Shown here: positions 2 through 61,135 of the stretch, one piece after another | Layout of the letters: every line of letters begins with the position of its first letter | Numbering within the stretch: position 1 is the first letter of the stretch | Origin: Shigella phage ESh25 | Sequence record: ON528735 | Direction: 5' to 3' (one strand) | DNA length: 64,000 nt | The notes under the pieces: model-generated | What the model was told of the DNA's origin: nothing | What the model saw: only the letters and a program-made list of their open reading frames with translations | The model's database searches: none | Position numbers and translations under genes: made by a program

Positions 2-1090
2 AAATCTTTAATTCAGGCTCTGCTCGCTCGGTATTATTTGGAAAATTACGAAGGTAAAATTCTTATCATTGTTCCAACAACTGCTCTAACAACTCAGATG
101 GCTGATGACTTCGTTGACTATCGTTTATTCAGTCATGCAATGATAAAGAAAATTGGTGGCGGAGCATCAAAAGATGATAAATATAAAAATGATGCACCAG
201 TCGTTGTTGGTACATGGCAAACTGTAGTTAAACAACCAAAAGAATGGTTCTCACAGTTTGGAATGATGATGAATGATGAATGTCATCTTGCTACAGGAAA
301 AAGTATTTCATCTATCATATCAGGTTTAAATAACTGCATGTTCAAATTTGGTCTATCTGGTTCATTACGTGATGGCAAAGCCAATATCATGCAGTATGTT
401 GGAATGTTTGGTGAAATATTTAAGCCAGTAACGACTTCTAAATTAATGGAAGATGGACAAGTAACTGAGCTAAAAATTAATAGTATTTTTCTTCGCTATC
501 CCGATGAATTCACTACTAAATTAAAGGGAAAAACTTATCAAGAAGAAATAAAAATTATTACTGGGCTTAGTAAAAGAAATAAATGGATCGCTAAATTAGC
601 TATTAAGCTTGCGCAAAAAGATGAAAACGCTTTTGTCATGTTTAAACATGTATCACATGGTAAAGCTATTTTCGATTTAATTAAAAATGAATACGATAAA
701 GTTTATTACGTATCAGGGGAAGTTGATACCGAAACCCGCAATATAATGAAAACCTTAGCTGAAAATGGTAAAGGAATAATTATAGTAGCTAGTTATGGTG
801 TATTTTCTACTGGTATTTCAGTTAAAAATCTGCATCACGTTGTTTTAGCGCACGGTGTTAAATCAAAAATCATTGTATTACAAACAATCGGTCGTGTATT
901 ACGTAAGCATGGTTCTAAGACAATAGCAACAGTCTGGGACCTCATAGATGATTGTGGTGTTAAGCCAAAATCTGCTAATACGAAAAAGAAATATGTTCAT
1001 TTGAACTATCTTTTAAAACACGGCATTGATCGTATTCAGCGCTACGCAGATGAAAAATTTAATTACGTAATGAAAACAGTTAATTTATAA
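2..1090 (+). CDS. uvsW: UvsW SF2 DNA helicase, 5'-truncated at window edge (C-terminal ~360 aa)
   Basis: Frame open to window start; DExH box (NDECH) and motif VI-like QTIGRVLR; sits upstream of uvsW.1/uvsY as in T4. Confidence 0.8.
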   Translation, partial: KSLIQALLARYYLENYEGKILIIVPTTALTTQMADDFVDYRLFSHAMIKKIGGGASKDDKYKNDAPVVVGTWQTVVKQPKEWFSQFGMMMNDECHLATGKSISSIISGLNNCMFKFGLSGSLRDGKANIMQYVGMFGEIFKPVTTSKLMEDGQVTELKINSIFLRYPDEFTTKLKGKTYQEEIKIITGLSKRNKWIAKLAIKLAQKDENAFVMFKHVSHGKAIFDLIKNEYDKVYYVSGEVDTETRNIMKTLAENGKGIIIVASYGVFSTGISVKNLHHVVLAHGVKSKIIVLQTIGRVLRKHGSKTIATVWDLIDDCGVKPKSANTKKKYVHLNYLLKHGIDRIQRYADEKFNYVMKTVNL

Positions 1091-1115
1091 GGGCTTCGGC
1101 CCTTTGGAGAAAAAG

Positions 1116-1572: not shown

Positions 1573-1600
1573 GATTGTCTCCTCTAAATTATATATCTAT

Positions 1601-2238: not shown

Positions 2239-2278
2239 ATTGTTCTCTATTCAATTGTTATTGGATGGACTTAGATTC

Positions 2279-2306
2279 ATTATACCACGTATAAACGTGA
2301 AGCATT
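2279..2306 (-). promoter_or_regulatory. middle-promoter-like element for uvsY (MotA box plus -10)
   Basis: Minus strand reads AATGCTTCA, 13 nt, TATAAT; matches MotA-box consensus (a/t)(a/t)TGCTT(t/c)A at about -30. Confidence 0.5.
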
Positions 2307-3329: not shown

Positions 3330-3350
3330 ATTTAGCTCCTTTATTTATCA

Positions 3351-3362
3351 TATTTATAAATA
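3351..3362. promoter_or_regulatory. divergent late promoters (TATAAATA on both strands) for genes 26 and 51
   Basis: Palindrome TATTTATAAATA gives TATAAATA at 3355-3362 (+) and 3351-3358 (-), about 20-25 nt before each start codon. Confidence 0.6.
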
Positions 3363-3379
3363 GAATAAAAGGAGCATCT

Positions 3380-5301: not shown

Positions 5302-5782
5302 TAAAGAAGTTTCTATTCCTAAGATGGGTCTTAAACATTATAACATTTTAAAAGATGTTAAAGGTCCTGATGAAAATTTAAAACTTCTTATTGATTCTAT
5401 TTGTCCGAATTTATCACCGGCAGAAGTTGATTTCGTTTCTATTCATTTATTGGAATTTAATGGAAAGATTAAATCTCGTAAAGAAATAGATGGTTATACT
5501 TATGATATTAATGACGTTTATGTATGTCAAAGATTGGAATTTCAATACCAAGGAAATACATTTTATTTTAGACCTCCTGGAAAATTTGAACAATTTTTAA
5601 CTGTAAGCGATATGTTATCCAAATGCTTGCTTAAGGTCAATGATGAAGTTAAAGAAATTAATTTTCTTGAGATGCCAGCATTTGTTTTAAAATGGGCAAA
5701 TGATATTTCTACAACTTTAGCAATTCCTGGCCCTAATGGTCCAATAACCGGAATTGGCAATATTATTGGATTATTTGAATGA
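5249..5782 (+). CDS. 28: baseplate hub distal protein gp28
   Basis: 177 aa, same as T4 gp28; overlaps the 3' end of gene 27. Confidence 0.75.
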
Positions 5783-7551: not shown

Positions 7552-7559
7552 GGAATAAT

Positions 7560-9619: not shown

Positions 9620-9623
9620 CAAT

Positions 9624-9653
9624 GGGGACCTTTCGGTCCCCATATTTTTATTT
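9624..9653 (+). terminator. rho-independent terminator after gene 54
   Basis: 7-bp stem GGGGACC/GGTCCCC with 4-nt loop, followed by ATATTTTTATTT. Confidence 0.7.
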
Positions 9654-9999: not shown

Positions 10000-12056
10000 T
10001 ACATTTTGAACTTTTTAGACATTCCGTTGATGTTAACCAAAGAAGCTAAGATTTGAGAAACTTCGCTTTCCTCTTCTTTTGATTCTTCTACAAGGAATTG
10101 ATTAAATCCAGCCATTGGACGAAATTCACCAGTTTCCATTAGATGGTCGCCATCATATACTGATTCTTCTAATTGTTCAGAAGGAGGAACGATTGTACCT
10201 TCGATTAGATACTTATTATAAGCAGTTTCTTTCATAAAGTAAGTACTTACTTTATTAATCTTCAGTAAAATTCCACGTGGTAGAATAACTTCAGCTTCTG
10301 ATGGAAATCCTGACAAATGACCTGGAACGATAACTTTAACTCGTTCAGCTCCTTTAATTACCATACCCACGCTAGTTTCTGCATCTTCATTAGCATATGT
10401 AGAATGACTACCCATATGCATCAAATCTTCTGCATCAACGGAACCTTCTCCTTCACCAGAAAATACTGCGCCGGAATCATCTAGAGCCATATAGTTTTTA
10501 CCATGCTCACCGAAGATATTTGGTTTAAGCGATGTGGATACGAAGTTCTTGAAATAGAACATTTTGTTTTCAATGTTATGACGCAAAGTTTTAAATGTAA
10601 CTTCTTGTCCACGGTAAAGTGTAGTTCCTGGAGGAAGAACTGAACCTTTAGCGAATGCAGAATCAAGCGTCTCGATGTGCTTAATAGCACGTTCCATATA
10701 TTCTTCACGGGTAGAATCCGGTTTACCTAAAAGGAACGAGTTCATTTCAACATATGAATCTGCGCAATAATCTTCAATTACATCAGACTCAGCCTGAGTC
10801 AATCCTTTTGGAGTTACTTCAGTGCTTGCATATTCATACGCCTGAGCAGCGGATTCATCAATTAATTTATAAATTCCATTCATTACAAATTGAATAATAG
10901 CTGTCTTTTCATCTGGCGTAGCTTTAGAACCTTTAACTAAATCATTGATAATTTTCTTAATAACATCAAAACTATTAGAAATATTAATATCAGCAAGATC
11001 GCTTAAAATTTTATCAGTTTTATAATCAAAGAATTCTTTATTCTTTAAATATTCTTGAGAACCTTGATATGTTATATCGCTCTGCAACTTGATAGATGGA
11101 TCACGTAAACGTGCATGGGCTAATGCAATATGATTTCGGAAGCTTTCTAGTTCATAATCGTTAGATTTAAAACGAGAAGCACTTCTCATACCACCGATAG
11201 CTCCTTTGCTGAAGTTTGAACCAATCTGAATAACGCCAGAGTTCATTGGTCCTTCTGCTTTATATACCGGAACTTTAGATTCAAACTCTTGATATTTCTT
11301 AGCAGCGAAGCTATCACCCTGAAGTGAAGCATCAACAGTAGAATATTGAGCTTGTGCTGCTAATCGACGACTAATTTTAGTTTTCTGAATAACAGCTTGA
11401 TCCGTACGCTTATCATTTTCTAAAGCAATAGAAGCAGCAACTGCGACAGCTTTAGGAACAGCATTACCTGTTTTAACGTCTACATAAACATCACCGACTT
11501 TCGATTCAACTTTTGTGAATAACTCAGTTGAAATAGGAGGTACACCTGGAATGTCTTCTAAATTGGCATTTTTACGGTAAACCATAATATATGCATATTT
11601 CTTATCATAGTCCCAGATTTCCTTTAAAAGAACATATCGACCTGCTCCTTTAGTACGTACTAAACGGTCAGCAATAACTTGCATTTGACGAGCAGCGCCG
11701 TTTGTTTTACTTTTTAGTACGCGGAATAGGCATGCATCAATTTTATACTGTTTCATTGTTTGAAGAGCAGTATCAAAAACCGCATTAATGACACCAATTG
11801 GATTTCCACCCAAGTTTTTAAGCTTAACTAACGATAATTTCTCGTTGACGCCTATCATTACGATATGCATCATTTTGTCGCCTGGCTTAACGTTTTTATT
11901 CGTATCACCGCCAGAGGTGTATGTACAAAATCGAAATCCAGGAAGAACGCTTTCTTCACCGGCTTGAATAGCAAAAATTTGAGGTATTTTATGCTTAGGA
12001 TTTAAGTTAACAACCGGCGCCGAAGCGCCGTCAAATAATTCTGTAATAAGTTCCAT
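9999..12056 (-). CDS. Alt-family ADP-ribosyltransferase paralogue (685 aa)
   Basis: C-terminal R-S-E ART triad (YRGQ, FVSTS, EAEVILPRG); N-terminal ~230 aa similar to the adjacent alt; divergent middle. Confidence 0.8.
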   Translation of the reverse strand: MELITELFDGASAPVVNLNPKHKIPQIFAIQAGEESVLPGFRFCTYTSGGDTNKNVKPGDKMMHIVMIGVNEKLSLVKLKNLGGNPIGVINAVFDTALQTMKQYKIDACLFRVLKSKTNGAARQMQVIADRLVRTKGAGRYVLLKEIWDYDKKYAYIMVYRKNANLEDIPGVPPISTELFTKVESKVGDVYVDVKTGNAVPKAVAVAASIALENDKRTDQAVIQKTKISRRLAAQAQYSTVDASLQGDSFAAKKYQEFESKVPVYKAEGPMNSGVIQIGSNFSKGAIGGMRSASRFKSNDYELESFRNHIALAHARLRDPSIKLQSDITYQGSQEYLKNKEFFDYKTDKILSDLADINISNSFDVIKKIINDLVKGSKATPDEKTAIIQFVMNGIYKLIDESAAQAYEYASTEVTPKGLTQAESDVIEDYCADSYVEMNSFLLGKPDSTREEYMERAIKHIETLDSAFAKGSVLPPGTTLYRGQEVTFKTLRHNIENKMFYFKNFVSTSLKPNIFGEHGKNYMALDDSGAVFSGEGEGSVDAEDLMHMGSHSTYANEDAETSVGMVIKGAERVKVIVPGHLSGFPSEAEVILPRGILLKINKVSTYFMKETAYNKYLIEGTIVPPSEQLEESVYDGDHLMETGEFRPMAGFNQFLVEESKEEESEVSQILASLVNINGMSKKFKM

Positions 12057-14176: not shown

Positions 14177-14184
14177 TATTTATA
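14177..14184 (-). promoter_or_regulatory. late promoter TATAAATA upstream of alt
   Basis: Minus strand TATAAATAG about 20 nt before the alt ATG; Alt is a late, packaged protein. Confidence 0.55.
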
Positions 14185-14189
14185 AAATT

Positions 14190-14206
14190 AAAGGCCCGAA
14201 GGCCTT
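14190..14206 (-). terminator. hairpin terminator (GGCC-UUCG-GGCC plus U-rich tail)
   Basis: Directly after the stop of the 62-aa ORF; followed on minus strand by TTTAATTTTAT. Confidence 0.5.
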
Positions 14207-14394
14207 TAGTAATCTAGTGGTAAGAGAGTACGATATATTTCAAACTTTGGTCCTTTTTCATAGGCATCAAATGTTTCTGTAAATTTATTATAAGCGTATG
14301 CATCTACAAATTCGAGAATGACTTGTGATACAGAAGTAGAAACATCTCCACCTTCTTTTTGAGCAATGACAATTGTTTCTAAGTAAGCTTTCAT
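14206..14394 (-). CDS. hypothetical protein (62 aa), alt.1 position
   Basis: Start overlaps the ligase stop. Confidence 0.55.
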   Translation of the reverse strand: MKAYLETIVIAQKEGGDVSTSVSQVILEFVDAYAYNKFTETFDAYEKGPKFEIYRTLLPLDY

Positions 14395-17807: not shown

Positions 17808-18145
17808 TAGAACCTCATCTGAAAACCGTGCGATTTAACATTACCGCCACCAATATCAGAGATATTAATTTCGCGCGCAATTGAAGGGTCAATGTCAATT
17901 TCACGATTGAGTTTAGTGATAGCTAAAGTATCGCGCCCATTTACAGTACGGAACTCTAAAGGGCAGACTACATTAACGTAGTTTTTAATCGATTCACTGG
18001 TAGGTTGCAAATGAGCAGGAAGGTCTTTAGGCGCCTTTGAGAAAACAACTTCACAGAAATTTTTGCGGGTATCAAAATAAGTAGTCATAAACATAATATT
18101 TTCCTCAGTAAGGGGCCGAAGCCCCTGTTTTATTTTAAATATCAA
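17807..18145 (-). CDS. hypothetical protein (112 aa; possibly starts at internal Met, 18094)
   Basis: GC-rich UUCG hairpin at 18107-18122 lies inside the track N-terminus, suggesting the later start with GAGGAAAA Shine-Dalgarno. Confidence 0.5.
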   Translation of the reverse strand: MIFKIKQGLRPLTEENIMFMTTYFDTRKNFCEVVFSKAPKDLPAHLQPTSESIKNYVNVVCPLEFRTVNGRDTLAITKLNREIDIDPSIAREINISDIGGGNVKSHGFQMRF

Positions 18146-18977: not shown

Positions 18978-19006
18978 AAAATAAAAAAGGACTCCCGAAG
19001 GAGTCC
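18978..19006 (-). terminator. rho-independent terminator
   Basis: Perfect 7-bp stem GGACTCC with UUCG loop, followed on minus strand by TTTTTTATTTT. Confidence 0.75.
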
Positions 19007-19011
19007 TCAAC

Positions 19012-25326: not shown

Positions 25327-26914
<1,588 letters not shown>

Positions 26915-26922
26915 AATAAAAT

Positions 26923-26936
26923 GGGCCTTGCGGCCC
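26923..26936 (-). terminator. hairpin (GGGCC-GCAA-GGCCC) between nrdB and denA, terminator-like
   Basis: Stem-loop followed on minus strand by ATTTTATT, then the denA ATG. Confidence 0.45.
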
Positions 26937-26941
26937 ACTCC

Positions 26942-28120
26942 TTAAAAATATTTTTTAAAACTCATCATAACTTTATCATCAACATCATTATCAATCTGTG
27001 CAACAAGATAAGATGACAGTTCTACTTCTTGCGGCGCGGATTGAACATTATCAGAATTAAGGTATTCACGAATCCAAGGATATGGATGTTTAACCGGAGC
27101 ATCGGTAATCGGGCATGGAAGACCACACTGTTTCATACGAGATACAGTTAAGTAATCAATAAAGCTCCACATGCTATTTGTATTTAATCCAGGAACATCG
27201 CCATCTTTAAATAAATGAACTGCCCAATCTTTTTCTTGGCGGTTAACTTCCATGAAAATATCAACTGCTTCTTGTTCACACTCTTTGGCAATTTTAACCC
27301 ATTCATCACCATCAGTACCGGATTGAAGTTGACGAATAATATATTGTGTACCTTTAAGATGAAGCTGCTCATCACGTGCAATAAATTTCATAATCTTCGC
27401 ATTACCTTCCATGATTTCCATGTTCTTATGGAAGTTGAAAGTACATGCAAAGGATACATAAAAACGAATAGCTTCCAGAGCATTGATAACGTGCAGACAG
27501 AGATAAAGCGACTTCATCAGGTCTCGTTTACATTCTTCCAAATGAGTGAGACTGTTTGAATATGCTTCTAAATCATATTCATTTTCAGCAAAATAACTAA
27601 AGTTTTCTTTGGCGTTTTCCCAAATACGTGTCTTGTCCAGAACATCATCATAATAACGACCAATAGATTCAGCACGTTTCATGATAGCTTTATCTAATAC
27701 AATCTCATCAAATACCTTTGACGGATCAGTATAAAGATTTCGCATAATATGAGTGTATGAACGACTGTGAATGGTTTCACTAAAAGTCCATGTAGCAACC
27801 CATGTATCAAGGCTTGGGTCTGAAATCAATGACATAAGTACAGCAGACGGTGCACGACCCTGAATGCTATCTAGAAGTGATTGATACTTCAGATTATTAG
27901 TAAAAATATTCTGCTGATATTGAGGAAGCTTATTAAACTGTGCAGCATCCATCATTAAGTTTACTTCTTCAGGACGCCAGAAAAATGACAACTGCTTTTC
28001 GGTTAAATCTTCAAAAACTTTATGACGTTGAATATCATAACGCGCAATACCAAGACCTGAACCAAAAAACATAGGTTCTTTTAAAACATCAACTGGATTT
28101 GTATTAAAAACTGTGCTCAT
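26942..28120 (-). CDS. nrdB: ribonucleotide reductase small subunit, uninterrupted
   Basis: 392 aa continuous ORF; no intron or homing-endonuclease ORF. Confidence 0.9.
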   Translation of the reverse strand: MSTVFNTNPVDVLKEPMFFGSGLGIARYDIQRHKVFEDLTEKQLSFFWRPEEVNLMMDAAQFNKLPQYQQNIFTNNLKYQSLLDSIQGRAPSAVLMSLISDPSLDTWVATWTFSETIHSRSYTHIMRNLYTDPSKVFDEIVLDKAIMKRAESIGRYYDDVLDKTRIWENAKENFSYFAENEYDLEAYSNSLTHLEECKRDLMKSLYLCLHVINALEAIRFYVSFACTFNFHKNMEIMEGNAKIMKFIARDEQLHLKGTQYIIRQLQSGTDGDEWVKIAKECEQEAVDIFMEVNRQEKDWAVHLFKDGDVPGLNTNSMWSFIDYLTVSRMKQCGLPCPITDAPVKHPYPWIREYLNSDNVQSAPQEVELSSYLVAQIDNDVDDKVMMSFKKYF

Positions 28121-28171
28121 AAATTTTCCACTTAGTTAATAGTTGGTGACTCGTCCGTGAGTCAAATTATA

Positions 28172-30436
28172 TCATAATTTACAGGATGAACAATCTTCAG
28201 CTTTTGGAGTTTCTATTTCATAATCATCAGTACCAGAACCATCACGGGTATTATGATAATAGAAATTTTTTCCGCCAAAATACCAAAAATACAAAAGGTC
28301 ATCAATCATTATTGACATTGGAACCTTTCCTTTTGGAAAAATCTGCGGGTCATAATATGTATTCGCTGAAGCTGATTGACATACCCATTTCAGCATAATA
28401 GCTACCTGCGTAAGATAAGGTTTATTACCTTTCTTAGCTAATTTCCATGTATAATCATATAGGTCTATGTTATGTTCAATATTGGGCACGACTTGATTAA
28501 AGGAACCCTCTTTTGATTCTTTAACAGAGACTGGTCCACGTGGAGGCTCGATACCGTTTGTACTGTTAGAAACTTGGGAAGATGACTCACATGGCATAAG
28601 TGCTGATAATGTGCTATTACGGATGCCAAAGAGCTTAAGGTCTTCCCGCAGCGACGACCAGTCACAAACGTATTTTGGAGCTGCGATTTGGTCAATCTTT
28701 TTATTGTACCAGTCGATAGGTAATTCGCCTCGAGACCAACGAGTGTCTGAATAATATTCACAAGGTCCTTTTTCTTTGGCGAGTTTAATGGATGCTTTAA
28801 TGAGTCCATACTGTAATCTCTCAAATAGTTCATGTGTTAAATCGTTAGCATCTTCATAAGAAGCAAAGTTACTTGCCAACCAAGCTGCATAGTTAGTAAC
28901 ACCTACACCGAGGTTACGACGCTTTTTAGCTTTTTCTGCTTCAGGAACTGGATATCCTTGGTAATCCAAAAGATTATCAAGAGCACGAACCTGGACTTCT
29001 GCCAATTCATTAATTTTATCTTGGTCTTGCCAGTCAAAATTATCCAGTACGAATGCAGAGAGAGTACACAATCCAATTTCAGCATCAGGACTATTCACAT
29101 CATTTGTTGGAATAGCAATTTCACAGCACAAGTTACTCTGACGAATAGGTGCCTTTTCACGAATAAACGGAGTATAGTTATTCGTATTATCAATGAACTG
29201 TACATAAATCCTTGCTGTTCCTGAGCGTTCAGTCATGAGCAATTCAAATAGTTCACGGGCTTTAATACGCTTTTTACGAATATTAGGGTCTTTTTCTGCT
29301 GCTTCGTATAATTCACGGAAACGGTCTTGGTCTTTAAAATAAGAATAATAAAGCTCTCCGCCCATTTCATGGGGACTGAACAAAGTAATGTAATCGTTCT
29401 TTCCAAAACGTTCCATCATCAAATCATTCAGTTGAACACCATAATCCATATGACGAATGCGGTTTTCTTCTACGCCTTTGTTATTTTTCAAAACAAGAAG
29501 ATTTTCAACTTCCAAATGCCAAATAGGATAATAAGCAGTAGCAGCGCCGCCACGAATTCCACCCTGTGAGCATGATTTAACAGCAGTCTGAAAATGTTTC
29601 CAAAAAGGAATAACACCAGTATGGCGTACTTCACCCATGCCAATCTTAGAACCTTCAGCACGAATCATACCAACGTTAATACCAATTCCAGCGCGTTTAG
29701 AGATATATTCAACAATTGAAGCGGAAGCCTTATTGATAGACTTTAATGAATCACCTGCCTCAATAACAACGCATGAACTAAACTGCCGGGTTGGAGTACG
29801 GCAACCAGCCATAATAGGAGTTGGCAATGAAATCTGTCGAGTAGATACTGCTTCATAAAAACGAATAACGTGTTTTAATCTATCAACAGGTTCATCTTGA
29901 TGCAGTGCCATTCCAATAGTCATAAATGCAAACTGCGGAGTTTCATAAATTTGACCAGTGGTTTTATCTTTAACTAGATATTTTTCTTTTAATTGCATCG
30001 CCCCGGAATAAGTAAATTCCATATCCCGCTCGTGCTTAATTTTTGATTCTAAAAATGTAATTTCTTCTGCTGAATATTTTGACAATAATTCAGGGTCATA
30101 TTTACCTTCATTTACACAGTAAGAAATATGGTCAATAAATGAACGCGGTTCATACTGCCCATAAACATGCTTACGAAGAGCAAACATTAAACAACGTGCA
30201 GCTACATATTGATAATCAGGCTCTTCAACCGAAATAGAATTCGCAGCAGCCTTAATGACAATAGTCTGAATATCATCAGTTGTCATTCCATCACGGAGAT
30301 AAGATTTAATATTTTCATATAATTCATAAGGATCTACTGATGTTCCTTCAGCTGCCCAAGATAAAACTTTAATAATTTTTTGTGGGTCAAAGCTCTGAGA
30401 AACACCACTACTTTTGATAACATTAATTAATTGCAT
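28172..30436 (-). CDS. nrdA: ribonucleotide reductase large subunit
   Basis: 754 aa, same as T4 NrdA; C-terminal CSSCKL tail. Confidence 0.95.
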   Translation of the reverse strand: MQLINVIKSSGVSQSFDPQKIIKVLSWAAEGTSVDPYELYENIKSYLRDGMTTDDIQTIVIKAAANSISVEEPDYQYVAARCLMFALRKHVYGQYEPRSFIDHISYCVNEGKYDPELLSKYSAEEITFLESKIKHERDMEFTYSGAMQLKEKYLVKDKTTGQIYETPQFAFMTIGMALHQDEPVDRLKHVIRFYEAVSTRQISLPTPIMAGCRTPTRQFSSCVVIEAGDSLKSINKASASIVEYISKRAGIGINVGMIRAEGSKIGMGEVRHTGVIPFWKHFQTAVKSCSQGGIRGGAATAYYPIWHLEVENLLVLKNNKGVEENRIRHMDYGVQLNDLMMERFGKNDYITLFSPHEMGGELYYSYFKDQDRFRELYEAAEKDPNIRKKRIKARELFELLMTERSGTARIYVQFIDNTNNYTPFIREKAPIRQSNLCCEIAIPTNDVNSPDAEIGLCTLSAFVLDNFDWQDQDKINELAEVQVRALDNLLDYQGYPVPEAEKAKKRRNLGVGVTNYAAWLASNFASYEDANDLTHELFERLQYGLIKASIKLAKEKGPCEYYSDTRWSRGELPIDWYNKKIDQIAAPKYVCDWSSLREDLKLFGIRNSTLSALMPCESSSQVSNSTNGIEPPRGPVSVKESKEGSFNQVVPNIEHNIDLYDYTWKLAKKGNKPYLTQVAIMLKWVCQSASANTYYDPQIFPKGKVPMSIMIDDLLYFWYFGGKNFYYHNTRDGSGTDDYEIETPKAEDCSSCKL

Positions 30437-30753
30437 AAGTCCTCAACTTGAAAATCGTCTTTAAACAATCGGTTAACTATATGAGCTATTATATCACCAT
30501 GACACGGCTTTGGTTTACATGTGCATCCTAGCCTCATTCCACGTAAAGGCTCTAAATGTGCTTTAGTTATTTCTCCGGATTTAATTCGACGTATAAAATC
30601 TTTTTTGAATAATTCAATGGCAGCCTCCCGGCTGCCAGCATCTTTACCGACGTAATTTCCCCAAAATGTACCACGGTGAATATTAACATCAAAGTCGGAT
30701 TTATATTTATTCACTACCTGGCATAGACGGCCCGCGCGGTGATAATTCGTCAT
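30427..30753 (-). CDS. hypothetical protein (108 aa) with C-x-C-x-P-x-x-C-H motif (DUF4326-like), nrdA.1 position
   Basis: [14 protein letters not shown] motif. Confidence 0.5.
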
Positions 30754-30993: not shown

Positions 30994-31854
30994 TTATACC
31001 GCCATTTTTCCTTTCAAGACACCGTGGGACTGATAATCTTTGAGAACGAAATCTTTAGGCCTGAGTTTAAGAACATATTCCAATTGTTCTTTAGTAGAAA
31101 GATAGCGGAATTTATAAGGCAATCCGCCTATTACCAGTTCACAAAGCTCTTTAGGTTCACGACGCAAAATTTCTTTACATTGTTCTACGTGATTCATATA
31201 GATATGAGTATTACCGCCAGAAAATATCAAATCTCCAGGAATAAGATTACACATCTTAGCTACAATATGAACTAACGCAGCATATGATGCAATATTAAAT
31301 GGAAGACCAAGAAAAACATCTACTGATCGTTGATACCACTGCAAATCCAAATAGCCATTACGCACATTAAACTGATAGAACATATGACAAGGCGGTAATG
31401 CCATATATTTAAGTTCAGCTGGATTCCACGCAGAAACAATTTGTCGCCTATCATTCGGCAGTTTTTTAATACGATCAATAACTTCTACAATTTGGTCTAC
31501 ACCGCCAAAATCACGCCATTGTTTTCCATAAATTGGACCAAGTTCACCGCTATGGTATCCTAAATCTTTTGCTTGATTTTCGTAATTTTCATCCCAGACT
31601 GTTTTGCCTTGAATTAATGAATCATGCTGAATTAATCGTAAATCATTGACATTTATGCTTCCTGATAAAAACCAAAGTAGCTCAGCAATGCAAGCTTTCC
31701 AGGCGAGCTTTTTAGTTGTTACTGCAGGAAAACCTTTACTTAAATCCCAGCGTAATTTAGTACCGAACAAAGCAATTGTTCCTGTGCCTGTTCGATCATC
31801 GGTTTCATAGCCATTTTCAAAAATGTCTTTAATTAAATCTTGGTATTGTTTCAT
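30994..31854 (-). CDS. td: thymidylate synthase, uninterrupted
   Basis: 286 aa continuous; catalytic LPPCH motif; no intron or I-TevI-like ORF. Confidence 0.95.
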   Translation of the reverse strand: MKQYQDLIKDIFENGYETDDRTGTGTIALFGTKLRWDLSKGFPAVTTKKLAWKACIAELLWFLSGSINVNDLRLIQHDSLIQGKTVWDENYENQAKDLGYHSGELGPIYGKQWRDFGGVDQIVEVIDRIKKLPNDRRQIVSAWNPAELKYMALPPCHMFYQFNVRNGYLDLQWYQRSVDVFLGLPFNIASYAALVHIVAKMCNLIPGDLIFSGGNTHIYMNHVEQCKEILRREPKELCELVIGGLPYKFRYLSTKEQLEYVLKLRPKDFVLKDYQSHGVLKGKMAV

Positions 31855-34037: not shown

Positions 34038-34083
34038 TTTGATTTCCTCATTTTAACGGGGCTATCAAATAGCCCCTTGATAA

Positions 34084-47933: not shown

Positions 47934-48206
47934 TTATTTGTTTGTATACATCTCTAGATATCGATATACACCCTCAAAACCCTCGTTGAATTCGTCGATG
48001 AGGGTTTTCTTATCTTCTTGAGTTAATTCAGAAACAATTTTACGGAATGAATTCTGATTTAACTTTCTACCTTCATGCGTTACTCCAATCTCATTCAGAA
48101 ATGCAATAAAATTAGCACGATTCTCAACAATATCTTCTCTGGAAAATTTAATCAAAATAGACGCAACAGTAATAATTTCACGAACTGTATCAATATTTTT
48201 ATTCAT
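47934..48206 (-). CDS. asiA: AsiA anti-sigma70 factor
   Basis: 90 aa, same as T4 AsiA; recalled N-terminus MNKNIDTVREII. Confidence 0.9.
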   Translation of the reverse strand: MNKNIDTVREIITVASILIKFSREDIVENRANFIAFLNEIGVTHEGRKLNQNSFRKIVSELTQEDKKTLIDEFNEGFEGVYRYLEMYTNK

Positions 48207-51095: not shown

Positions 51096-51124
51096 AATAA
51101 AAAAGGGAGAGCCGAGGCTCTCCC
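51096..51124 (-). terminator. rho-independent terminator
   Basis: Stem GGGAGAGCC/GGCTCTCCC followed on minus strand by TTTTTTATTT. Confidence 0.7.
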
Positions 51125-51129
51125 TAAAA

Positions 51130-52904: not shown

Positions 52905-52985
52905 TCACTGGCGTCCGAAGACGCCTTTAGTTTTAAGATTATTACGATAGAACTGCATCACGTGTTCGTTGTGGAAATTACTCAT
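52905..52985 (-). CDS. stp: Stp peptide (26 aa), activator of the host PrrC anticodon nuclease
   Basis: Translation [26 protein letters not shown] matches recalled T4 Stp; 1-nt overlap with the ndd stop. Confidence 0.7.
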
Positions 52986-55297: not shown

Positions 55298-55348
55298 TTA
55301 AACTTTCCTTTATGTCGGAATCATAATTTCTCTTAAAACAAAAGGGCC

Positions 55349-55360
55349 GAAGCCCTTATT
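55349..55360. terminator. hairpin GGGC-CGAA-GCCC, terminator-like on both strands
   Basis: Followed by TTATTTATTT on plus and TTTTGTTTTAAG on minus; same stem recurs at 55577-55588. Confidence 0.5.
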
Positions 55361-55554
55361 TATTTGAATTGTGCAATTCTTTTCTCTAAACATTCAGCAT
55401 AAGATTTCATTGAGATGAACTGTGAAAGTAGCAGTTCTTGCTCAACTGCACTAACTGTTAGAAACTTTGCGCTTTCTAAAAATTTACTCAGTGCATTAAT
55501 TTTGAGCATTAATTGATCGTATTCTTCTTTTACTCGTGCTTGATAACCTAACAT
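55360..55554 (-). CDS. hypothetical coiled-coil protein (64 aa)
   Basis: ORF between rIIB and denB. Confidence 0.5.
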   Translation of the reverse strand: MLGYQARVKEEYDQLMLKINALSKFLESAKFLTVSAVEQELLLSQFISMKSYAECLEKRIAQFK

Positions 55555-55582
55555 AATTTTCCTTAGTTAAGGGCCGAAGCCC

Positions 55583-56521
55583 TTATTTAAATTGTTCAGT
55601 AACGTCTTCAATTACTTCGTATTGGCAGGTACGCATTTTAGCGTCGTTGTAATCAATCGGAATTGATACTACATCACGAGGATGAACTTTAACTTTTACA
55701 ACTCGACTAGTTGAACCACCGAAGTGACGAATATAAGATTTAGAACACACATGCAGACCACGAGAACAAGTTTGTGTATCATCGTCATTCACACGAGTAC
55801 GCGGCATTTTAACTACTTTACCCGGGCTGTTATCAAAGGTGTTTGAATGACAGTCAAAGTAATTACTACGAACTACTTTCCAAGCATAGAAGTAACCATC
55901 TTCTGTAATTTCAATATCATTTGCTACCAAGAAATCAAAGAGTCGAGATACCGCTTTTTGGCTTGGGTTTTCCAGCAGATTTTCCAAGAACGGAAAATAA
56001 AATTCAAAGTTTTCGCCTTTTTCCATCGAATCAAGAATACGATCAACCAAACCAGACCGCAATTCAATATTTTGATAGAATAAGCTTCCACCTTCAATTC
56101 GAACATCGCCGGAAATATATTTTTCAACAGCGCGACGAACATTAATTTTTTGTGCCGCTTCTTCTAACTTATCTGCTACGAGCAGATTAAGAATTTCCTG
56201 GAAGTTTGAATGTGTATTAGGAGTTGCGTTATAAGTTACACCGTCAACAGTAATTGAAATGAATTTTTTAGATGCATTCCAAATAATGTCAGATTTAGCA
56301 ACTGGAGCAATAACTGCATCGCTATTAACTTTAACTGTAATATCACCGCTAATAGTAACTTTAGGGCGTTTAGCTTCTTCAGCATTTTTCAAAACACGAC
56401 GAATTGTGTCAACCGATACACCTTGCCAATCAGCCAATTCCTGTTGGGTGTAATTACCACTTGAATACAGCTTAACAATTTCAGCTTGTTCGTTTTTGGT
56501 CAGGCATTTAATATTGTACAT
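55583..56521 (-). CDS. rIIB: rIIB membrane-associated protein
   Basis: 312 aa, same as T4 rIIB. Confidence 0.9.
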   Translation of the reverse strand: MYNIKCLTKNEQAEIVKLYSSGNYTQQELADWQGVSVDTIRRVLKNAEEAKRPKVTISGDITVKVNSDAVIAPVAKSDIIWNASKKFISITVDGVTYNATPNTHSNFQEILNLLVADKLEEAAQKINVRRAVEKYISGDVRIEGGSLFYQNIELRSGLVDRILDSMEKGENFEFYFPFLENLLENPSQKAVSRLFDFLVANDIEITEDGYFYAWKVVRSNYFDCHSNTFDNSPGKVVKMPRTRVNDDDTQTCSRGLHVCSKSYIRHFGGSTSRVVKVKVHPRDVVSIPIDYNDAKMRTCQYEVIEDVTEQFK

Positions 56522-56532: not shown

Positions 56533-58710
56533 TTAGGCCGCAAGGGCCTTCATAGTTTTAGCGATTTGGGAAACTTCATCATCACTTAAAGAGTTGCGAT
56601 AACCGATGAAGTCGGAAACAATACGGAATTTCTTGGTAAACTCAGCAACCATTTTATCACTGTTTTTTGAAGCATTATTTGATAATTCATCAAAGAGATT
56701 AGTTACTGTCCAGATATCATGACCGATGGTATCTTTTCCACCATTGAAATATACACCGCGCAATGAACTAACTATATTAGCGAGTCGTGTATATTCTTCA
56801 GAAACTTCATCTGTACTGAAGTACTTCATCATAAAATCTAGCTCAGGATACTTGATAATTTTATCAATATATCGTTGAGCTGAACTTGAATAACCTACAT
56901 ACTTATCATAATCTACATCATCAAAAGCATCTACATATAAATCACGCAAAGCTTCAAAAATACATTGGCACTGACTGAGTTCTTTTACCTTTTTCTGTAA
57001 AAGCGGACGAATAACATAAAATTCATTAATGCCAATAAGATTAGCCATACGAATCAAAATATTCATAGATGGATGACAAAGTGATGTAGTACCATCCATA
57101 GAGAAAATATCAGAACGATGCATATACGCTACATAACCAGTAATTTCATCTGCTTCTGATGTGAGCGTAAATAATTCCTCTTTTTCCCAGCGCCCATCTT
57201 TAATTTCAAATTTAAATGCTGTAGCAGCTTTAGGACGAGGAGCTTTACTTTTAACTACCTTTGGAATATAGCTTTTAACTAAAGTTTCAATTTCTGACAG
57301 ATAATGAATGTTAACTTCATCACTTTCAAACATTGCCATAATATCAGGTAGTAAATCAATCTGCGATTCTACTTCCGGATTAATAAACAGAAGACGCTCA
57401 TTGTGATGAATATTCAAAGTGTTATTAAATTCACTATCATCTAGCGCATGTGCTAATCCACGGACAATATTAACACGATTTTTAATATTATCAATAACGA
57501 TATTAATTTTTGTTGTATTAATACCAAACAGACGATAACTTGATGCAACGGCTGAAGTTTCATGACTTTGCTTAATGCGTTTCAGTCGAGGGTCAAGATT
57601 TACTTCATACACCACGCCTGCATTACATAACTTACTGTCAGGTTCAAACATGCTCTGCATCTTTTTATATGACAGATTTTTAGTCGTGAATTTGACTGAA
57701 TTACTAATCATATAATCTCGAGCAGAATACCCCATCTTCATCAATTCACGATATGTGTGACGGGGAGATGTAGATTCTTTAAATCGTTTTACATCTTCAT
57801 TAAATGCTTTCTCACTAAGCTCTTTAACTCGTTCAATAATATTTTTACGAGTACGATCATCCAATGAAAGAGCTTCACGTGATGGAGCAATATCAAGTGA
57901 ACCCATTGGAAACTTAATGTAATTCACTTCATTGCGAATGCTTAGCCAGTTACGGTCTCTAATAACACCATCGATAGGATAAACAATACCGCCATAGATA
58001 GCATATAATCCACCACGATCAGGCCAGTATCTTTCTGGATTTACACCGTAATAATCATCAAAATCCGGAAAATAATCAATTTCGCGGTCAAGACCATTAA
58101 TAATAGCCAAATCTTTGAACGGTCGCATGATATAAGAAACTTCATAAGCAAAGTTTCTAAAGTCTTTTTCTTCAACTGGAACTACGATTTCAATACCAGT
58201 TTTATCATCTGGACCCATTTCTTTTACGAATGTAGGTTTAATCTGTGGGCCATCACCATCCATGTAAGCTACATAACCACGAATTTCACCTTTATGATAC
58301 GAAGTAATACTAAACGTATCAGTATAACTAAACGGAGATTTAGAACCTAAACCAAATCCGCCAATGAAATCGTTAGATTCAGCCTTAGATGAACTGAAGT
58401 ATGAATTATACAAACCAGGAGAATTATCATCACCCTGAATATCAAAATCACTCATACCCGGACCAAAATCTCGGCAAACAAATCGTGGATCTAAACGTCC
58501 AGGAACTTGAATGATAAATTTTTCAGGATTTCCATTGAGAGCATGGGCATCAATCATGTTGGTAATCAATTCACGAACAACTGCGCGAATTTTGTTTGTA
58601 TACAAATCAGATGACAGAATTTTAAATACTTTAGGAGATGCTGTGATGCTAAATGCTTTTGATTTAGAACCATTACCAAGAATTGTTTCTTTTTCAGTGG
58701 TGATAATCAT
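56533..58710 (-). CDS. rIIA: rIIA protein (GHKL-type ATPase fold)
   Basis: 725 aa, same as T4 rIIA; N-terminal [11 protein letters not shown] Bergerat-type motif. Confidence 0.9.
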
Positions 58711-58979: not shown

Positions 58980-60796
58980 TACTGGCTCATCCATTCTTTA
59001 CGAAGGTCAGCATTATCTCCCATGAGCATTTCAAAAAGCTCTTTCCAGTTCTCAGGAAGTTTAACAACATCATATACTGGATTTTGAATCATCTCACGAT
59101 ATTCAGATTTTTCCAAAGAGCCAAGTCCCTTAATATAACGGATGCTATGTTTAGGTAGAGCATCTTTGGCACTCTCATATTCAGCGACTGTATAAAACCA
59201 TTCTTGTTTTTTACCGACCTGAGCGATGATTACAGGAGTTTTGACGAAGCGAATTCGTCCTTGCTCAAACAATTCTGGCCAATTACTAAAAAATCCGAGC
59301 AGAGAAGGATAAATGCTTCCTAGACCATCATGGTCAGCATCAGTCATAATAGCAATATTGCGATAATTCAAGTTTTCAGCTTTTTCACCAAGAACTAGAC
59401 CAGTGATTGCGCAAATATCAAATAGTTCTTTGTTTTTAAGCATATCGGCATATGACATACCCCAGCTATTAAGAACTTTACCGCGCAATGGATAACCACC
59501 ATGAAGTTCTTTATCGCGAACATCAATAAGATATCCGATAGCTGAATCACCCTCAGTCAAGAACAATGTAGTGTCAGCATCTTTACCGCAAAGATTCGCT
59601 TTAATATGTTTATGAACCTTAGCTTTAGAAGCCTTTTTAGCTGCTTTAGTTTCTGCTGCTTTTTCTGCCGCCAATTTACGAGCCAAAGCAGCTTCAATAA
59701 TCGGCATCAGAATTGCTTCATTATTTAGAATAGCGCGTGAAATCTTTTTAGCGTCAAGTTGAATATGACTACGAATTTCGCCAAATGGAGAAGTCAAACG
59801 CTCTTTAGTTTGAGAATCAAATCGCATGTTTTTCATATCACGAACAAACATAACGATAGTCAAACATTCTTTAACGCGTGCTTTAGTTACATCAATTTTG
59901 AATTTACGTTTGATTTGTGGAATAAGGTCTTCACAAATATCATCCATAACACAATCAATGTGATGACCACCATTCTTAGTGTGAATGTTATTCACATAAG
60001 TTAATTGACGAAAACCATCCGGTGAACGACCAACCGCAATAGAACAATTTTCTTGTTCTTGAACAATAGCGTGTTCATCATACTGTCGTGCATATTTCTT
60101 AAAATTGCCCTGAACCTTTTTACCATTAAAGGTAAATTGAATATCAGGATAAACAACAGCAAGTGTCTGGAGACGATCTAGTGTAATATCAAGATAAACT
60201 TGGGACAGCTCATTAGTTTCAAATGACATAAAATCAGGAATGAAAGTAACACGAGTTCCTTTCCATTTTCCAGGAATAGTTTCCCAGGATTTATTTTCCA
60301 TGCCGTTTGAACAACGAACTACAATATTATTTTGACCATCGCCAGTTTCACCGACAAACATCACAGAAAAAATGTTTGTCAAACTAGAACCAACACCATT
60401 CATACCACCGGTGACACGTTCTTTATCATCACCAAAGTTACCACCTGCTTTTGGAATAGTCCATGCAGCAACAGGACCAGGAATTTCTTCACCGGTAGGT
60501 GTTTTAACCATCGCCTGTGGAATACCGCGACCGTTATCTTCAACTGTTACTTGATTGTTTTTAATAGTAACATTAATTTTATTTGCGAATTTAAACTTAG
60601 TACGAATACCTTCATCTACTGAGTTATCGATAATTTCATCAATAAGCTTAACAAGACCAGGTACATACTGAACACTTTCCCATTTACCAAACAGAAAGCG
60701 CTCATGCATTTCATTAGCAGAAGAGCCAATGTACATGCCGCTACGCTTTTTGATATGTTCAATATCGCTCAGAATTTTAATTTCATTCTTAATCAT
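58979..60796 (-). CDS. 39: DNA topoisomerase II large subunit gp39 (GyrB-like ATPase), uninterrupted 605-aa form
   Basis: Continuous ORF covering what T4 splits into genes 39 and 60; no bypass element or mobA-like ORF. Confidence 0.9.
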   Translation of the reverse strand: MIKNEIKILSDIEHIKKRSGMYIGSSANEMHERFLFGKWESVQYVPGLVKLIDEIIDNSVDEGIRTKFKFANKINVTIKNNQVTVEDNGRGIPQAMVKTPTGEEIPGPVAAWTIPKAGGNFGDDKERVTGGMNGVGSSLTNIFSVMFVGETGDGQNNIVVRCSNGMENKSWETIPGKWKGTRVTFIPDFMSFETNELSQVYLDITLDRLQTLAVVYPDIQFTFNGKKVQGNFKKYARQYDEHAIVQEQENCSIAVGRSPDGFRQLTYVNNIHTKNGGHHIDCVMDDICEDLIPQIKRKFKIDVTKARVKECLTIVMFVRDMKNMRFDSQTKERLTSPFGEIRSHIQLDAKKISRAILNNEAILMPIIEAALARKLAAEKAAETKAAKKASKAKVHKHIKANLCGKDADTTLFLTEGDSAIGYLIDVRDKELHGGYPLRGKVLNSWGMSYADMLKNKELFDICAITGLVLGEKAENLNYRNIAIMTDADHDGLGSIYPSLLGFFSNWPELFEQGRIRFVKTPVIIAQVGKKQEWFYTVAEYESAKDALPKHSIRYIKGLGSLEKSEYREMIQNPVYDVVKLPENWKELFEMLMGDNADLRKEWMSQ

Positions 60797-60846: not shown

Positions 60847-60860
60847 CTAAAGGCCCGAAG
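60847..60860 (-). terminator. hairpin GGCC-UUCG-GGCC, terminator-like, followed by a MotA-box-like element before gene 39
   Basis: Minus strand AAAAGGCCTTCGGGCCTTTAGCTTTAT, then 12 nt, then TATAAT. Confidence 0.45.
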
Positions 60861-60865
60861 GCCTT

Positions 60866-61135
60866 TTATTTAAAACGAATAGTTGAATCCTTAAAGAACA
60901 GCCCAGAACATACTGTTCCTTCTACTTTCTGCCCGGTAGGTCCAATAGCACGAAATCCAGTATGTTGGAAATCATTTTCAGAGCAACCGAACCAGTTATA
61001 TCCAGTGATTTCAATATTCGTAAAACCACTTGATGATAAAATTTTAGTTGCATTATCAGCATCAGTACATCCTGCTAAAGACACTGCTAATACTAATGCC
61101 GCGATAGAACGATTAATATATTTCATAATTTTCAC
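60866..61135 (-). CDS. predicted lipoprotein (about 86-89 aa)
   Basis: Signal peptide with lipobox LAGC. Confidence 0.55.
   Translation of the reverse strand: MKIMKYINRSIAALVLAVSLAGCTDADNATKILSSSGFTNIEITGYNWFGCSENDFQHTGFRAIGPTGQKVEGTVCSGLFFKDSTIRFK

Follow-up and report, generated by a model that had tools for sequence, protein, structure and literature searches.

Extra-stable hairpins built on the sequence CUUCGG were described in phage T4 in 1988 (Tuerk et al.), and according to the summary of that work in PMC8948821 they are abundant between genes and stop reverse transcriptase. In T4, hairpin formation by CUUCGG is confined to the sense strand, a bias that was published in PNAS in 2020 (PMC7165471). 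T4-like phages also contain terminator-promoter cassettes known as promoter-early stem-loops (PeSL; Arbiol 2010, PMC2839356; Comeau 2014, PMC4122927). Furthermore, T4 genes 38 and 25 have split Shine-Dalgarno sites (Nivinskas et al.; reviewed in PMC3014915), and RegB cuts in Shine-Dalgarno sequences, with 3' exonucleases entering at the new ends (PMC3014915).

Here, we analyzed the hairpins in a stretch of 64,000 nucleotides of Shigella phage ESh25 (sequence record ON528735), hereafter the window. It belongs to a T4-like phage (Tequatrovirus), is colinear with T4, is ~95-98% identical to Shfl2 and T4, and wholly lacks the gene 60 insertion. The hairpin set is real and clearly selected. Its members are very probably the C(UUCG)G and GNRA tetraloop hairpins long known from mRNAs of T4-type phages, and they most likely act within the mRNA rather than by halting antisense transcription. 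The hairpin system is already known and little here is new: the analysis has recovered, from raw sequence, the setting where UUCG tetraloops were first found. Against Rfam 15, neither strand of the window gave a match at the gathering score. The sites considered are the following, each strand being that of the sense transcript.

1089..1104, plus strand: uvsW-uvsW.1 hairpin AAGGGC-UUCG-GCCCUU, overlapping the uvsW stop codon, with a GGAG Shine-Dalgarno sequence 1-3 nt after it.
9622..9643, no single strand: hairpin with a 9-bp stem between genes 54 (plus) and alt.-3 (minus), which converge, and with a GAAA loop on the minus strand; T-rich tails on both sides (8 of 10 nt on plus, 6 of 10 on minus) give it the look of a bidirectional terminator.
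12015..12030, minus strand: CGGCGC-UUCG-GCGCCG, 29 nt past the alt stop codon and 26 nt into a second alt-paralog ORF, where it encodes DGASAP; in T4 it lies in alt.-1.
14189..14208, minus strand: alt.1-alt hairpin UAAAGGCC-UUCG-GGCCUUUA, with the stop codon within the stem, followed by AUUUUAUAAAUA, which includes the late-promoter consensus TATAAATA (14177-14184).
18111..18126, minus strand: 30.7-30.6 hairpin AGGGGC-UUCG-GCCCCU, 8 nt past the stop codon and 4-5 nt before a GAGGA Shine-Dalgarno sequence, without a U-tract; the T4 loop is UUCA, and RB69 has GGGAGC-UUCG-GCUUCC.
18988..19007, minus strand: 30.9-30.8 hairpin AGGACUCC-UUCG-GGAGUCCU followed by UUUUUAUUUU, in the PeSL arrangement, with an early-type promoter downstream (GTTTACA, 17 nt, TAGTAT); the same in T4, another stem in RB69.
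26922..26937, minus strand: nrdB-denA hairpin UGGGCC-GCAA-GGCCCA, between an AAGGAG Shine-Dalgarno sequence that overlaps the nrdB stop codon and the denA AUG.
30618..30637, minus strand: hairpin of 8 bp with loop GGGA, within the coding sequence of nrdA.1 and conserved in T4; an uncertain member of the set.
34058..34076, minus strand: frd.3-frd.2 hairpin GGGGCUAU-UUG-AUAGCCCC, 7 nt past the stop codon and 8 nt before a GAGGA Shine-Dalgarno sequence; a variant is present in T4.
51104..51125, minus strand: motA.1-motA 9-bp hairpin with loop CUCG, followed by UUUUUAUUU, in the PeSL arrangement, with an early-type promoter downstream (TTTACA, 17 nt, TACTAT with TG).
52910..52925, minus strand: hairpin at the 3' end of stp, GGCGUC-UUCG-GACGCC, 3 nt before the GAGGA Shine-Dalgarno sequence of ac, without a U-tract; identical in T4.
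55342..55357, minus strand: denB.1-denB hairpin AAGGGC-UUCG-GCCCUU, then UUGUUUU; terminator-like on the sense strand, with the denB start 44 nt downstream.
55568..55585, minus strand: rIIB-denB.1 hairpin UAAGGGC-UUCG-GCCCUUA, whose stem base is the rIIB stop codon UAA; without a U-tract (a single T among the following 10 nt), the denB.1 AAGGA Shine-Dalgarno sequence 4 nt past the stem and the AUG 13 nt past it.
56536..56548, minus strand: weak hairpin GGCC-CUUGC-GGCC formed by the last rIIA codons, 4 nt before the rIIB Shine-Dalgarno sequence.
60849..60866, minus strand: 39.1-39 hairpin AAAGGCC-UUCG-GGCCUUU, abutting the 39.1 stop codon; the same in T4, LF82-2, mobillu and EK29; downstream lie a MotA-box-like sequence and TATAAT (a promoter read by eye), with the gene 39 start 49-52 nt away.

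All ten hairpins listed in a preliminary description of this DNA exist. Five had been placed exactly (1091-1103, 14193-14204, 26923-26936, 34058-34076, and 52910-52925), while the true cores of the other five (18112-18125, 55344-55355, 55571-55582, 56536-56548, and 60852-60863) lie ~5-6 nt from where they had been put. Two of the ten are not tetraloop hairpins, namely 34058 (8-bp stem, 3-nt loop) and 56536 (4-bp stem, 5-nt loop). The sequence GGGCCGAAGCCC is indeed used twice, with the copies 227 bp apart (230 had been given), and a third sense-orientation copy occurs at 1091-1102. The stp coding sequence does contain a hairpin, and GGCGTCTTCGGACGCC there encodes the C-terminal GVFGRQ of Stp. 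An assignment of the hairpins to early genes proved too narrow: site 1089 lies between the plus-strand genes uvsW and uvsW.1, and T4 and its relatives have the same hairpins between late tail-fiber genes. Scanning the window added the members at 9622, 12015, 18988, 30618, and 51104. Seven of the nine UUCG sites in the window are intergenic, and the remaining two overlap the stp 3' end and the alt-paralog 5' end. The sites in coding sequence (12015, 30618, and 52910) fall outside a simple rule of placement after a stop codon. Perfect hairpins with a 4-nt loop and at least four G-C pairs numbered 17, against 2.9 ± 1.7 (maximum 9) expected from 300 dinucleotide shuffles of the window. In the same shuffles, 0.02 hairpins with UUCG or CGAA loops were expected, and 9 were observed.

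As to strand, the UUCG loop was on the mRNA-sense strand at all nine sites in the window, and CTTCGG hexamers formed hairpins in 9 of 15 sense occurrences versus 0 of 13 antisense ones. A query of IMG/VR with RIIB returned only 8 loci, and GenBank phage records were then used for comparison. The resulting set comprised eight phages of six genera (the window, T4, RB69, LF82-2, mobillu, EK29, KP1LMA, and avDM3). In this set, where orthologous sites are counted repeatedly and are thus non-independent, UUCG loops were sense in 55 cases and antisense in 2, late genes on the other strand included, and GNRA loops were sense in 12 and antisense in 4. The strand of the UUCG loop switches together with that of the genes. 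Given that UUCG is consistently on the sense strand, also for late genes of the opposite strand, selection acts on the sense RNA. The two antisense exceptions are sites of RB69 and LF82-2 at the 52-motA junction, and at the motA.1-motA junction the loop is inverted between T4 and ESh25; because of these cases, loop orientation is not strictly required at long-stem terminators. The closing pair was C-G in 57 of 57 UUCG hairpins that passed a G-C filter in the eight phages, and in 65 of 86 when the filter was lifted. Nearest-neighbor energies ranged from -8.8 to -13.6 kcal/mol, the sense form being better than the antisense form by only ~0.9 kcal/mol. As a guide to strand choice, folding energy was set aside, for the nearest-neighbor model cannot tell sense from antisense with confidence. 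With so small a gap, the strand argument rests on loop identity and published thermodynamics.

The hairpins belong with the 3' end of the preceding cistron and not with the Shine-Dalgarno sequence that follows, because the gap from the upstream stop codon is small (median 4 nt, IQR -2 to 6, in the eight phages) and the distance to the next start is variable (median 44 nt, range 9-244). A position just before a Shine-Dalgarno sequence, as given in the preliminary description, was found at 6 of the 10 sites (gaps of 1-8 nt). At 14189, 55342, and 60849 the Shine-Dalgarno sequence is 20-40 nt away, and at 26922 it precedes the hairpin. The presence of a U-tract follows spacer length (Spearman rho = 0.74, p = 1e-9), with at least five T in the next 10 nt at 83% of sites whose spacer exceeds 18 nt versus 14% where the spacer is 18 nt or shorter. 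The view that many hairpins have no U-tract on the coding strand holds for 55568, 52910, 18111, 1089, 34058, and 56536 (1-3 T in the next 10 nt). At 55342, 18988, 51104, and 9622, a G-C-rich stem is followed by a sense-strand U-tract, and a scan for terminator patterns made sense-strand calls at 55342 and 51104.

We propose that the hairpin would form in the sense transcript right after, or overlapping, the stop codon of its cistron, and that its role would be set by context. With a long spacer, the hairpin and U-tract together are probably a partial intrinsic terminator, often with a promoter directly after it as in PeSL. In the window, this putative terminator class would comprise 55342, 18988, and 51104, with the bidirectional-looking 9622; 14189 and 60849 have weaker U-tracts and apparent promoters after them. 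A literature search for a T4 Term-seq or 3'-end map found none. If the next gene begins within ~18 nt (55568, 52910, 18111, 1089, 34058, and 56536), the U-tract is absent and transcription would read through. A hairpin of this kind may cap the preceding cistron with a stable structure, blocking 3'-to-5' exonucleases after RegB or RNase E cuts in the adjacent translation-initiation region. For these hairpins, we infer the role from their context.

Covariation in relatives had been suggested as a check, with loss of stem pairing counting against the idea; pairing is kept there through compensatory changes, and the idea passes this check. Downstream of rIIB, five genera share the hairpin position and differ in the stem. 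In a loop-anchored alignment of five cores from four genera (four from downstream of rIIB and the L009 hairpin that follows a denB.1 homolog), 100% of cells pair and five of the six pairs show a compensatory change, a count that is partly circular in that the rIIB cores were chosen as hairpins beforehand. The Slopekvirus hairpin was left out of this count, as MAFFT misaligned it across the distant genera. After rIIB, the loop in L005 and L006 is UUUG. The hairpins at the rIIA and 30.7-30.6 junctions are conserved as well; for rIIA, hairpins in the stop-codon region are also found in LF82-2, EK29, and avDM3, though differing in sequence. The denB.1-denB junction of L009-L011 carries AGCCC-UUCG-GGGCU plus UUUUUCUUU. 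No promoter match was found between the hairpins 55568 and 55342 and the next starts, which are 13 and 44 nt away.

We give practically no credence to the view that the hairpins are chance palindromes of an AT-rich genome. A few candidates form only weak hairpins or fall within genes (56536, 39814, 41445, and 53509), but a chance origin of the whole set is refuted by the excess over shuffles (17 versus 2.9 ± 1.7, and 9 versus 0.02 for UUCG loops) and by the conservation of hairpin positions in several genera. The preliminary description had also raised the possibility that the hairpins terminate antisense late transcription. Plus-strand transcripts would then enter the early clusters, and the position before Shine-Dalgarno sequences would be incidental. 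This is very improbable. A pattern scan does find plus-strand terminator-like sequences at 52910, 55342, 55568, and 56535; moreover, 18111 is followed by 8 T in 10 nt on the plus strand, the denB.1-denB hairpin of phage GiZh is annotated as a terminator on both strands, and 9622 is plausibly bidirectional. However, the opposite strand beside the hairpins is no richer in T than it is at gene ends in general (mean 4.9 vs 4.4 A among the final 10 nt; p = 0.30 by Mann-Whitney test; 98 gene-end controls), and its T-richness results from TAA stop codons and A-rich last codons. On the plus strand the loop would be CGAA, which has no special stability, whereas the UUCG or GNRA loop tracks the sense strand (55 versus 2) and moves with the genes. 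The same hairpins also follow late genes that have no known opposing antisense transcription. Further, no plus-strand late-promoter consensus TATAAATA that could feed antisense RNA was found between 48 kb and 61.4 kb, and a plus-strand terminator-like hairpin follows gene t at 47976-48008. Antisense termination as the main role was rejected on loop orientation, gene-end T-richness, and late-promoter positions; the findings support a role at the RNA level.

Within the mRNA, the hairpins might instead serve the downstream gene, as 5' stabilizers of processed mRNAs, as elements that direct or hinder cleavage by RegB or RNase E, or as insulators by which the neighboring Shine-Dalgarno sequence stays single-stranded, a possibility that we regard as unlikely but worth keeping in view. 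Six sites lie 1-8 nt ahead of a Shine-Dalgarno sequence; a 5' CUUCGG hairpin is reported to stabilize T4 gene 32 mRNA (as cited from Gorski 1985 in PMC8948821); and RegB, which cuts in Shine-Dalgarno sequences, is blocked by secondary structure (PMC3014915). Nevertheless, the next start is 9-244 nt away and the upstream stop codon only a few, and most of the Shine-Dalgarno sequences are GAGG or AAGG, not the RegB target GGAG. An insulation test was mixed; for each site, it compared the partition-function unpaired probability of the Shine-Dalgarno sequence and AUG in the wild type with that in 60 mutants whose stem arms had been shuffled: 2 of 5 sites before a Shine-Dalgarno sequence were more open and 3 of 5 were not. 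With no consistent effect in this test, a role as Shine-Dalgarno insulator is unsupported. An action mainly as DNA, with the palindromes as short homologies or hairpin sites for recombination and cassette shuffling and with secondary RNA effects, is less probable still. For PeSL cassettes, a part in the shuffling of modules among T4-like phages has been proposed (PMC4122927). In agreement with such a role, a ~45-nt imperfect direct repeat surrounds both denB.1 hairpins; an extra ORF directly after the 55342-type hairpin is present in L005 and L006 and absent from ESh25 and T4, among the few genomes compared; loops are inverted between close relatives with the stem kept; and one 16-mer, AAGGGCTTCGGCCCTT, reappears unchanged at unrelated junctions as well as in other genera. 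A DNA-level function, however, predicts no strand preference of the loop, and the observed ratio is 55 to 2 in favor of sense, with C-G closure. In addition, stems turn over by compensatory change while their position is kept, which points to pairing and not sequence homology as the target of selection.

The hairpin before denA has a layout of its own, UAAGGAG-U-[16-nt hairpin]-UUUUAUU-AUG, in which the Shine-Dalgarno sequence is ~23 nt from the AUG in linear form and ~7 nt once folded. Folding is thus predicted to restore the 5-11 nt spacing of a split ribosome-binding site. Six genera keep the order of Shine-Dalgarno sequence, hairpin, and AUG; pairing among them is 100%, and two pairs are compensatory. 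By analogy with T4 genes 38 and 25, the folded hairpin would bring the Shine-Dalgarno sequence and AUG to a workable spacing for translation. No description of denA as a split ribosome-binding site was found in the literature searched, and the conserved arrangement may be a new observation. In the T4 record, the denA start is placed at a GTG inside the hairpin.

Returning to the hairpins that abut stop codons and have no U-tract, for which we favor a capping role, a broader joint reading would make them more than passive caps. We offer it as speculation and consider it rather doubtful as a whole. It would combine the split site at denA with two other putative functions. The hairpins with the stop codon in the stem, after rIIB, alt.1, uvsW, and stp, could place the stop codon beside the next start and so tune re-initiation, and the ~45-nt repeat may mark a hairpin-mediated insertion of the small gene denB.1.

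According to our analyses, strong strand-specific selection still acts on the motif, both in a present-day relative of T4 and across at least six genera. In annotation, the hairpins can mark gene ends well and help to correct start-codon calls (e.g., the GTG of T4 denA), and pipelines that annotate such hairpins as terminators on both strands overcall. Among known systems outside phages, the REP/BIME intercistronic palindromes of E. coli reportedly stabilize upstream mRNA against 3' exonucleases (Newbury et al. 1987). REP elements are bacterial, ~35 nt long, have a consensus of their own, and bind host proteins. Like them, the ESh25 hairpins without a U-tract would be non-terminating stem-loops inside operons that possibly protect the upstream cistron; there is no sequence relationship, and the analogy is one of mechanism only. 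The T4 gene 60 bypass hairpin (L003, 2837-2854) has a UUCG loop and a stop codon in its 5' arm, a geometry like that of 55568 and 14189, but ESh25 is without the gene 60 insertion, and nothing in its hairpins points to bypassing.

Closer parallels lie within T4 and its relatives. The hairpin of T4 gene 38 has the GGGC-UUCG-GCCC core also found in ESh25, and the resemblance to the split sites of T4 genes 38 and 25 extends to one listed ESh25 site, denA. Compared with intrinsic terminators, 55342, 18988, 51104, and 9622 have the A-tract, G-C-rich stem, and U-tract on the sense strand, whereas 55568, 52910, 18111, 1089, 34058, and 56536 are without the sense U-tract. The sites at 18988 and 51104 match PeSL, with a stem-loop and U-tract and an early-type promoter directly after. 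Among the few genomes compared, indels between relatives lie beside such hairpins. The hairpins flanking denB.1 share only the stem-loop half, without the promoter. Against the C(UUCG)G hairpins of T4, finally, nothing essential differs. Both come from the same phage group, with the CUUCGG motif, C-G closure, a mainly intercistronic position, and sense-only formation. The ESh25 stems are perfect, the arms of the T4 reference are one base shorter, and some loops differ between T4 or relatives and ESh25, as with UUCA in T4 for UUCG at the 30.7-30.6 junction.

The window was colinear throughout with T4 113,096-168,903 followed by T4 1-7,843, and 527 phage records matched the 2 kb surrounding the two identical hairpins that flank denB.1 (the focal pair), the best being Shigella phage Shfl2 (97.7%; T4, 95.7%). 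Early and middle genes (alt to rnh, asiA to rIIB, and rIIA to motB) are on the minus strand, and the late clusters 51-54 and 34-t plus uvsW are on the plus strand. The nrdB intron, the td intron and the gene 60/mobA/bypass insertion of T4 are missing here (27444-28176, 31305-31307, and 59314-59379), and gene 39 is one ORF of approximately 606 codons.

All ten GC-rich hairpins listed in the preliminary description were present, five at exactly the listed coordinates and five shifted by 5-6 nt. The same sequence does occur twice, as GGGCCGAAGCCC at 55344-55355 and 55571-55582 (55342-55357 and 55568-55585 with A/U extensions), with a spacing of 227 rather than 230 bp. One hairpin does lie within the stp coding sequence, where GGCGTCTTCGGACGCC encodes the last residues of Stp. 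The claim of tetraloops throughout failed for sites 34058 and 56536, which are hairpins of other kinds. A blind scan of the window, which required a perfect stem (≥4 bp, ≥4 G-C pairs) capped by a 4-nt loop, returned 17 sites, compared with 2.9 ± 1.7 (maximum 9) in 300 dinucleotide-preserving shuffles; UUCG or CGAA loops accounted for nine sites, with 0.02 expected. The hairpins are real and strongly non-random. The scan also found sites missing from the earlier list, namely 9622, 12015, 18988, 30618, and 51104. The genes of the focal region and the classes of site, named by start coordinate, are as follows.

55583-56521, minus strand: rIIB, whose end falls in the focal interval
55360-55554, minus strand: denB.1, 64 codons
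54740-55297, minus strand: denB, whose start falls in the focal interval
55342, minus strand: terminator-like on the sense strand, UUGUUUU tail (denB.1/denB junction)
18988, minus strand: terminator-like on the sense strand, then an early-type promoter (promoter-early stem-loop, or PeSL, arrangement)
51104, minus strand: terminator-like on the sense strand, then an early-type promoter (PeSL arrangement)
9622, both strands: hairpin between convergent genes, T-rich tails in both directions
14189, minus strand: grouped with the terminator-like sites, late-promoter consensus after it
60849, minus strand: grouped with the terminator-like sites, MotA-box-like sequence and TATAAT after it, by eye
55568 (rIIB/denB.1 junction), 52910, 18111, 1089, 34058, and 56536: adjoining a stop codon, without a U-tract, Shine-Dalgarno sequence 1-8 nt downstream
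26922, minus strand: the sole site between a Shine-Dalgarno sequence and its AUG (denA)

Site 12015 (12015-12030, minus strand) is a UUCG hairpin with six G-C pairs, 26 nt into the ORF of a second alt paralog, where it encodes DGASAP. The paralog is full-length (685 aa), and T4 also has the hairpin, in the fragment gene alt.-1. It lies 29 nt past the alt stop codon and so may serve to terminate alt, a start codon having been fitted in between the two. The nrdA.1 coding sequence contains a hairpin (30618-30637, minus strand; 8-bp stem, GGGA loop) that is identical in T4.

At all nine UUCG sites of the window, including site 1089 between the plus-strand genes uvsW and uvsW.1, the UUCG loop was on the same strand as the neighbouring genes. 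The scan was extended to T4 and to 33-50-kb stretches of RB69, LF82-2, mobillu, Klebsiella phages EK29 and KP1LMA, and Aeromonas phage avDM3. Across the window and these phages, UUCG was sense in 55 cases and antisense in 2, compared with 12 and 4 for GNRA loops. The orientation switches with gene direction, and in the tail-fibre clusters UUCG is on the late-gene strand. A C-G closing pair was present in 57/57 UUCG hairpins passing the G-C filter (65/86 without it), and in the window 9 of 15 sense CTTCGG hexamers fell inside hairpins, as against 0 of 13 antisense ones. For T4, the sense-only result has already been published (PMC7165471). The exceptional stability of C(UUCG)G RNA, which its complement lacks, is established, as papers citing Tuerk 1988 relate (PMC8948821, PMC7165471); taken with the loop orientation, it indicates that selection acts on the sense transcript. 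Two long-stem terminators show loop inversion with a kept stem between close relatives: the sense strand reads CUCG at 51104-51125 and CGAG in T4 (L001 23705-23726), and UUCG in mobillu (L014 24820-24833) and CGAA in RB69 (L012 45127-45144) and LF82-2 (L013 24810-24827). This pattern suggests that the hairpins mediate small inversions of the DNA.

The stems of the 57 UUCG hairpins lie close to the stop codon upstream (median gap from its end 4 nt, IQR -2 to 6), with UAA included in the stem in several of them, whereas the distance to the next start codon varies (median 44 nt, range 9-244). This assigns the hairpins to the 3' end of the cistron before them, and the location 5-12 nt before a Shine-Dalgarno sequence reported earlier arises because the spacer is short at those sites. 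The presence of a U-tract correlates with spacer length (rho = 0.74, p = 1e-9): at least five T in the 10 nt after the stem were found at 83% of sites with a spacer >18 nt and at 14% of those with a spacer ≤18 nt.

The most original part of the preliminary interpretation was that the hairpins may terminate antisense late transcription. A pattern scan did find 52910, 55342, 55568, and 56535 terminator-like on the plus strand, and the annotation of phage GiZh marks the denB.1/denB hairpin on both strands. Nevertheless, antisense T, counted as A over the 10 nt ahead of each hairpin, averaged 4.9, not significantly more than the 4.4 seen across 98 ordinary gene ends (p = 0.30); it reflects the stop codon TAA and last codons that are rich in A. 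Furthermore, the late-promoter consensus TATAAATA did not occur on the plus strand between 48 and 61.4 kb, and a plus-strand hairpin with a 14-bp stem and a T-rich tail (47976-48008), directly after gene t and within the asiA coding region, may terminate the late tail-fibre/holin transcript. As the special loop also sits on the sense strand, antisense termination is unlikely to be the selected role; the proposal of a role at the RNA level stands. Judging from their anatomy, hairpins with a U-tract would be intrinsic terminators of the sense transcript, probably partial because the downstream genes of these units must still be expressed. Efficient termination is impossible for those without a U-tract, yet they are kept; they would provide a stable 3' cap for the upstream cistron after RegB or RNase E cleavage in the neighbouring initiation region. 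RegB cleaves within Shine-Dalgarno sequences and is blocked by structure, and host 3' exonucleases enter at new 3' ends (PMC3014915). Downstream, a role as 5' stabiliser is possible; tests for an effect insulating the Shine-Dalgarno sequence were negative or mixed.

Pairing was conserved in relatives, contrary to the refuting outcome named in the preliminary description. The rIIB stop codon is followed by a hairpin in five genera with unrelated stems, namely GGGC/GCCC (Tequatrovirus), GGGGAC/GUCCCC (Mosigvirus and Marfavirus), AAGCCCUC/GAGGGCUU (Tulanevirus), and GCGCCUGGA/UCUGGGCGC with a GAGU loop (Slopekvirus). We aligned five cores from four genera on their loops, four following rIIB and the fifth being the hairpin after the denB.1 homolog in the relative L009. 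Every cell pairs, with changes on both sides in 5/6 pairs, a count that is partly circular because the cores were chosen as hairpins. In L009 and two further relatives (L010 and L011), rIIB overlaps the next gene, and the hairpin AGCCC-UUCG-GGGCU together with UUUUUCUUU follows the denB.1 homolog instead. LF82-2, EK29, and avDM3 also have hairpins around the stop codon of rIIA, and at the 30.7/30.6 junction RB69 keeps a UUCG hairpin with a different stem. Both denB.1 hairpins lie inside an imperfect direct repeat of approximately 45 nt (55300-55400 and 55535-55625, minus strand), which covers the last codons (QFK, stop) of rIIB and denB.1 and the initiation regions that follow. Relatives have a single hairpin, before or after the denB.1 slot; in close relatives an ORF beside the repeat is present or absent, and some have an extra ORF past the second hairpin. 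The stems are perfect in the window and in all four of the IMG/VR relatives (L004, L006-L008) whose loop at this position is UUCG. In T4 (L001 27650-27975; AF158101 167,650-167,975), both hairpins have one arm 1 base short (GGC..GCCC and GGGC..GCC), which may be artefacts of gel compression in the older sequencing.

At the nrdB/denA junction (26904-26945, minus strand), the nrdB stop overlaps an AAGGAG Shine-Dalgarno sequence, which is followed by a tetraloop hairpin and then the denA AUG. The order UAAGGAG, hairpin, 7-9 nt, AUG is kept in six genera or groups (Tequatrovirus, Mosigvirus, Dhakavirus, a Klebsiella phage, Kanagawavirus, and Gualtarvirus) and is absent from JSE and avDM3. The stems compared (T4 L002 29936-29951, RB69 L012 22083-22096, and four other relatives, L019-L022) covary, with a GCAA or UUCG loop. 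The T4 record AF158101 begins denA at a GTG within the hairpin (144 aa), not at the ATG (136 aa). Judged by its sequence layout, denA appears to have a split ribosome-binding site like those of genes 38 and 25, which would make it the third; our literature search found no paper that names it as one.

No Rfam family covers the hairpins. The phenomenon is already known, and is textbook T4 biology, since the UUCG tetraloop system, PeSLs, and split ribosome-binding sites have been described before. The UUCG tetraloop was itself discovered in T4-type mRNA hairpins, and the terminator-promoter cassettes at 18988 and 51104 are the published PeSLs (Arbiol, Comeau; PMC4122927). Split ribosome-binding sites are known from T4 genes 38 and 25 (PMC3014915), and the gene 38 hairpin is the identical GGGC-UUCG-GCCC.
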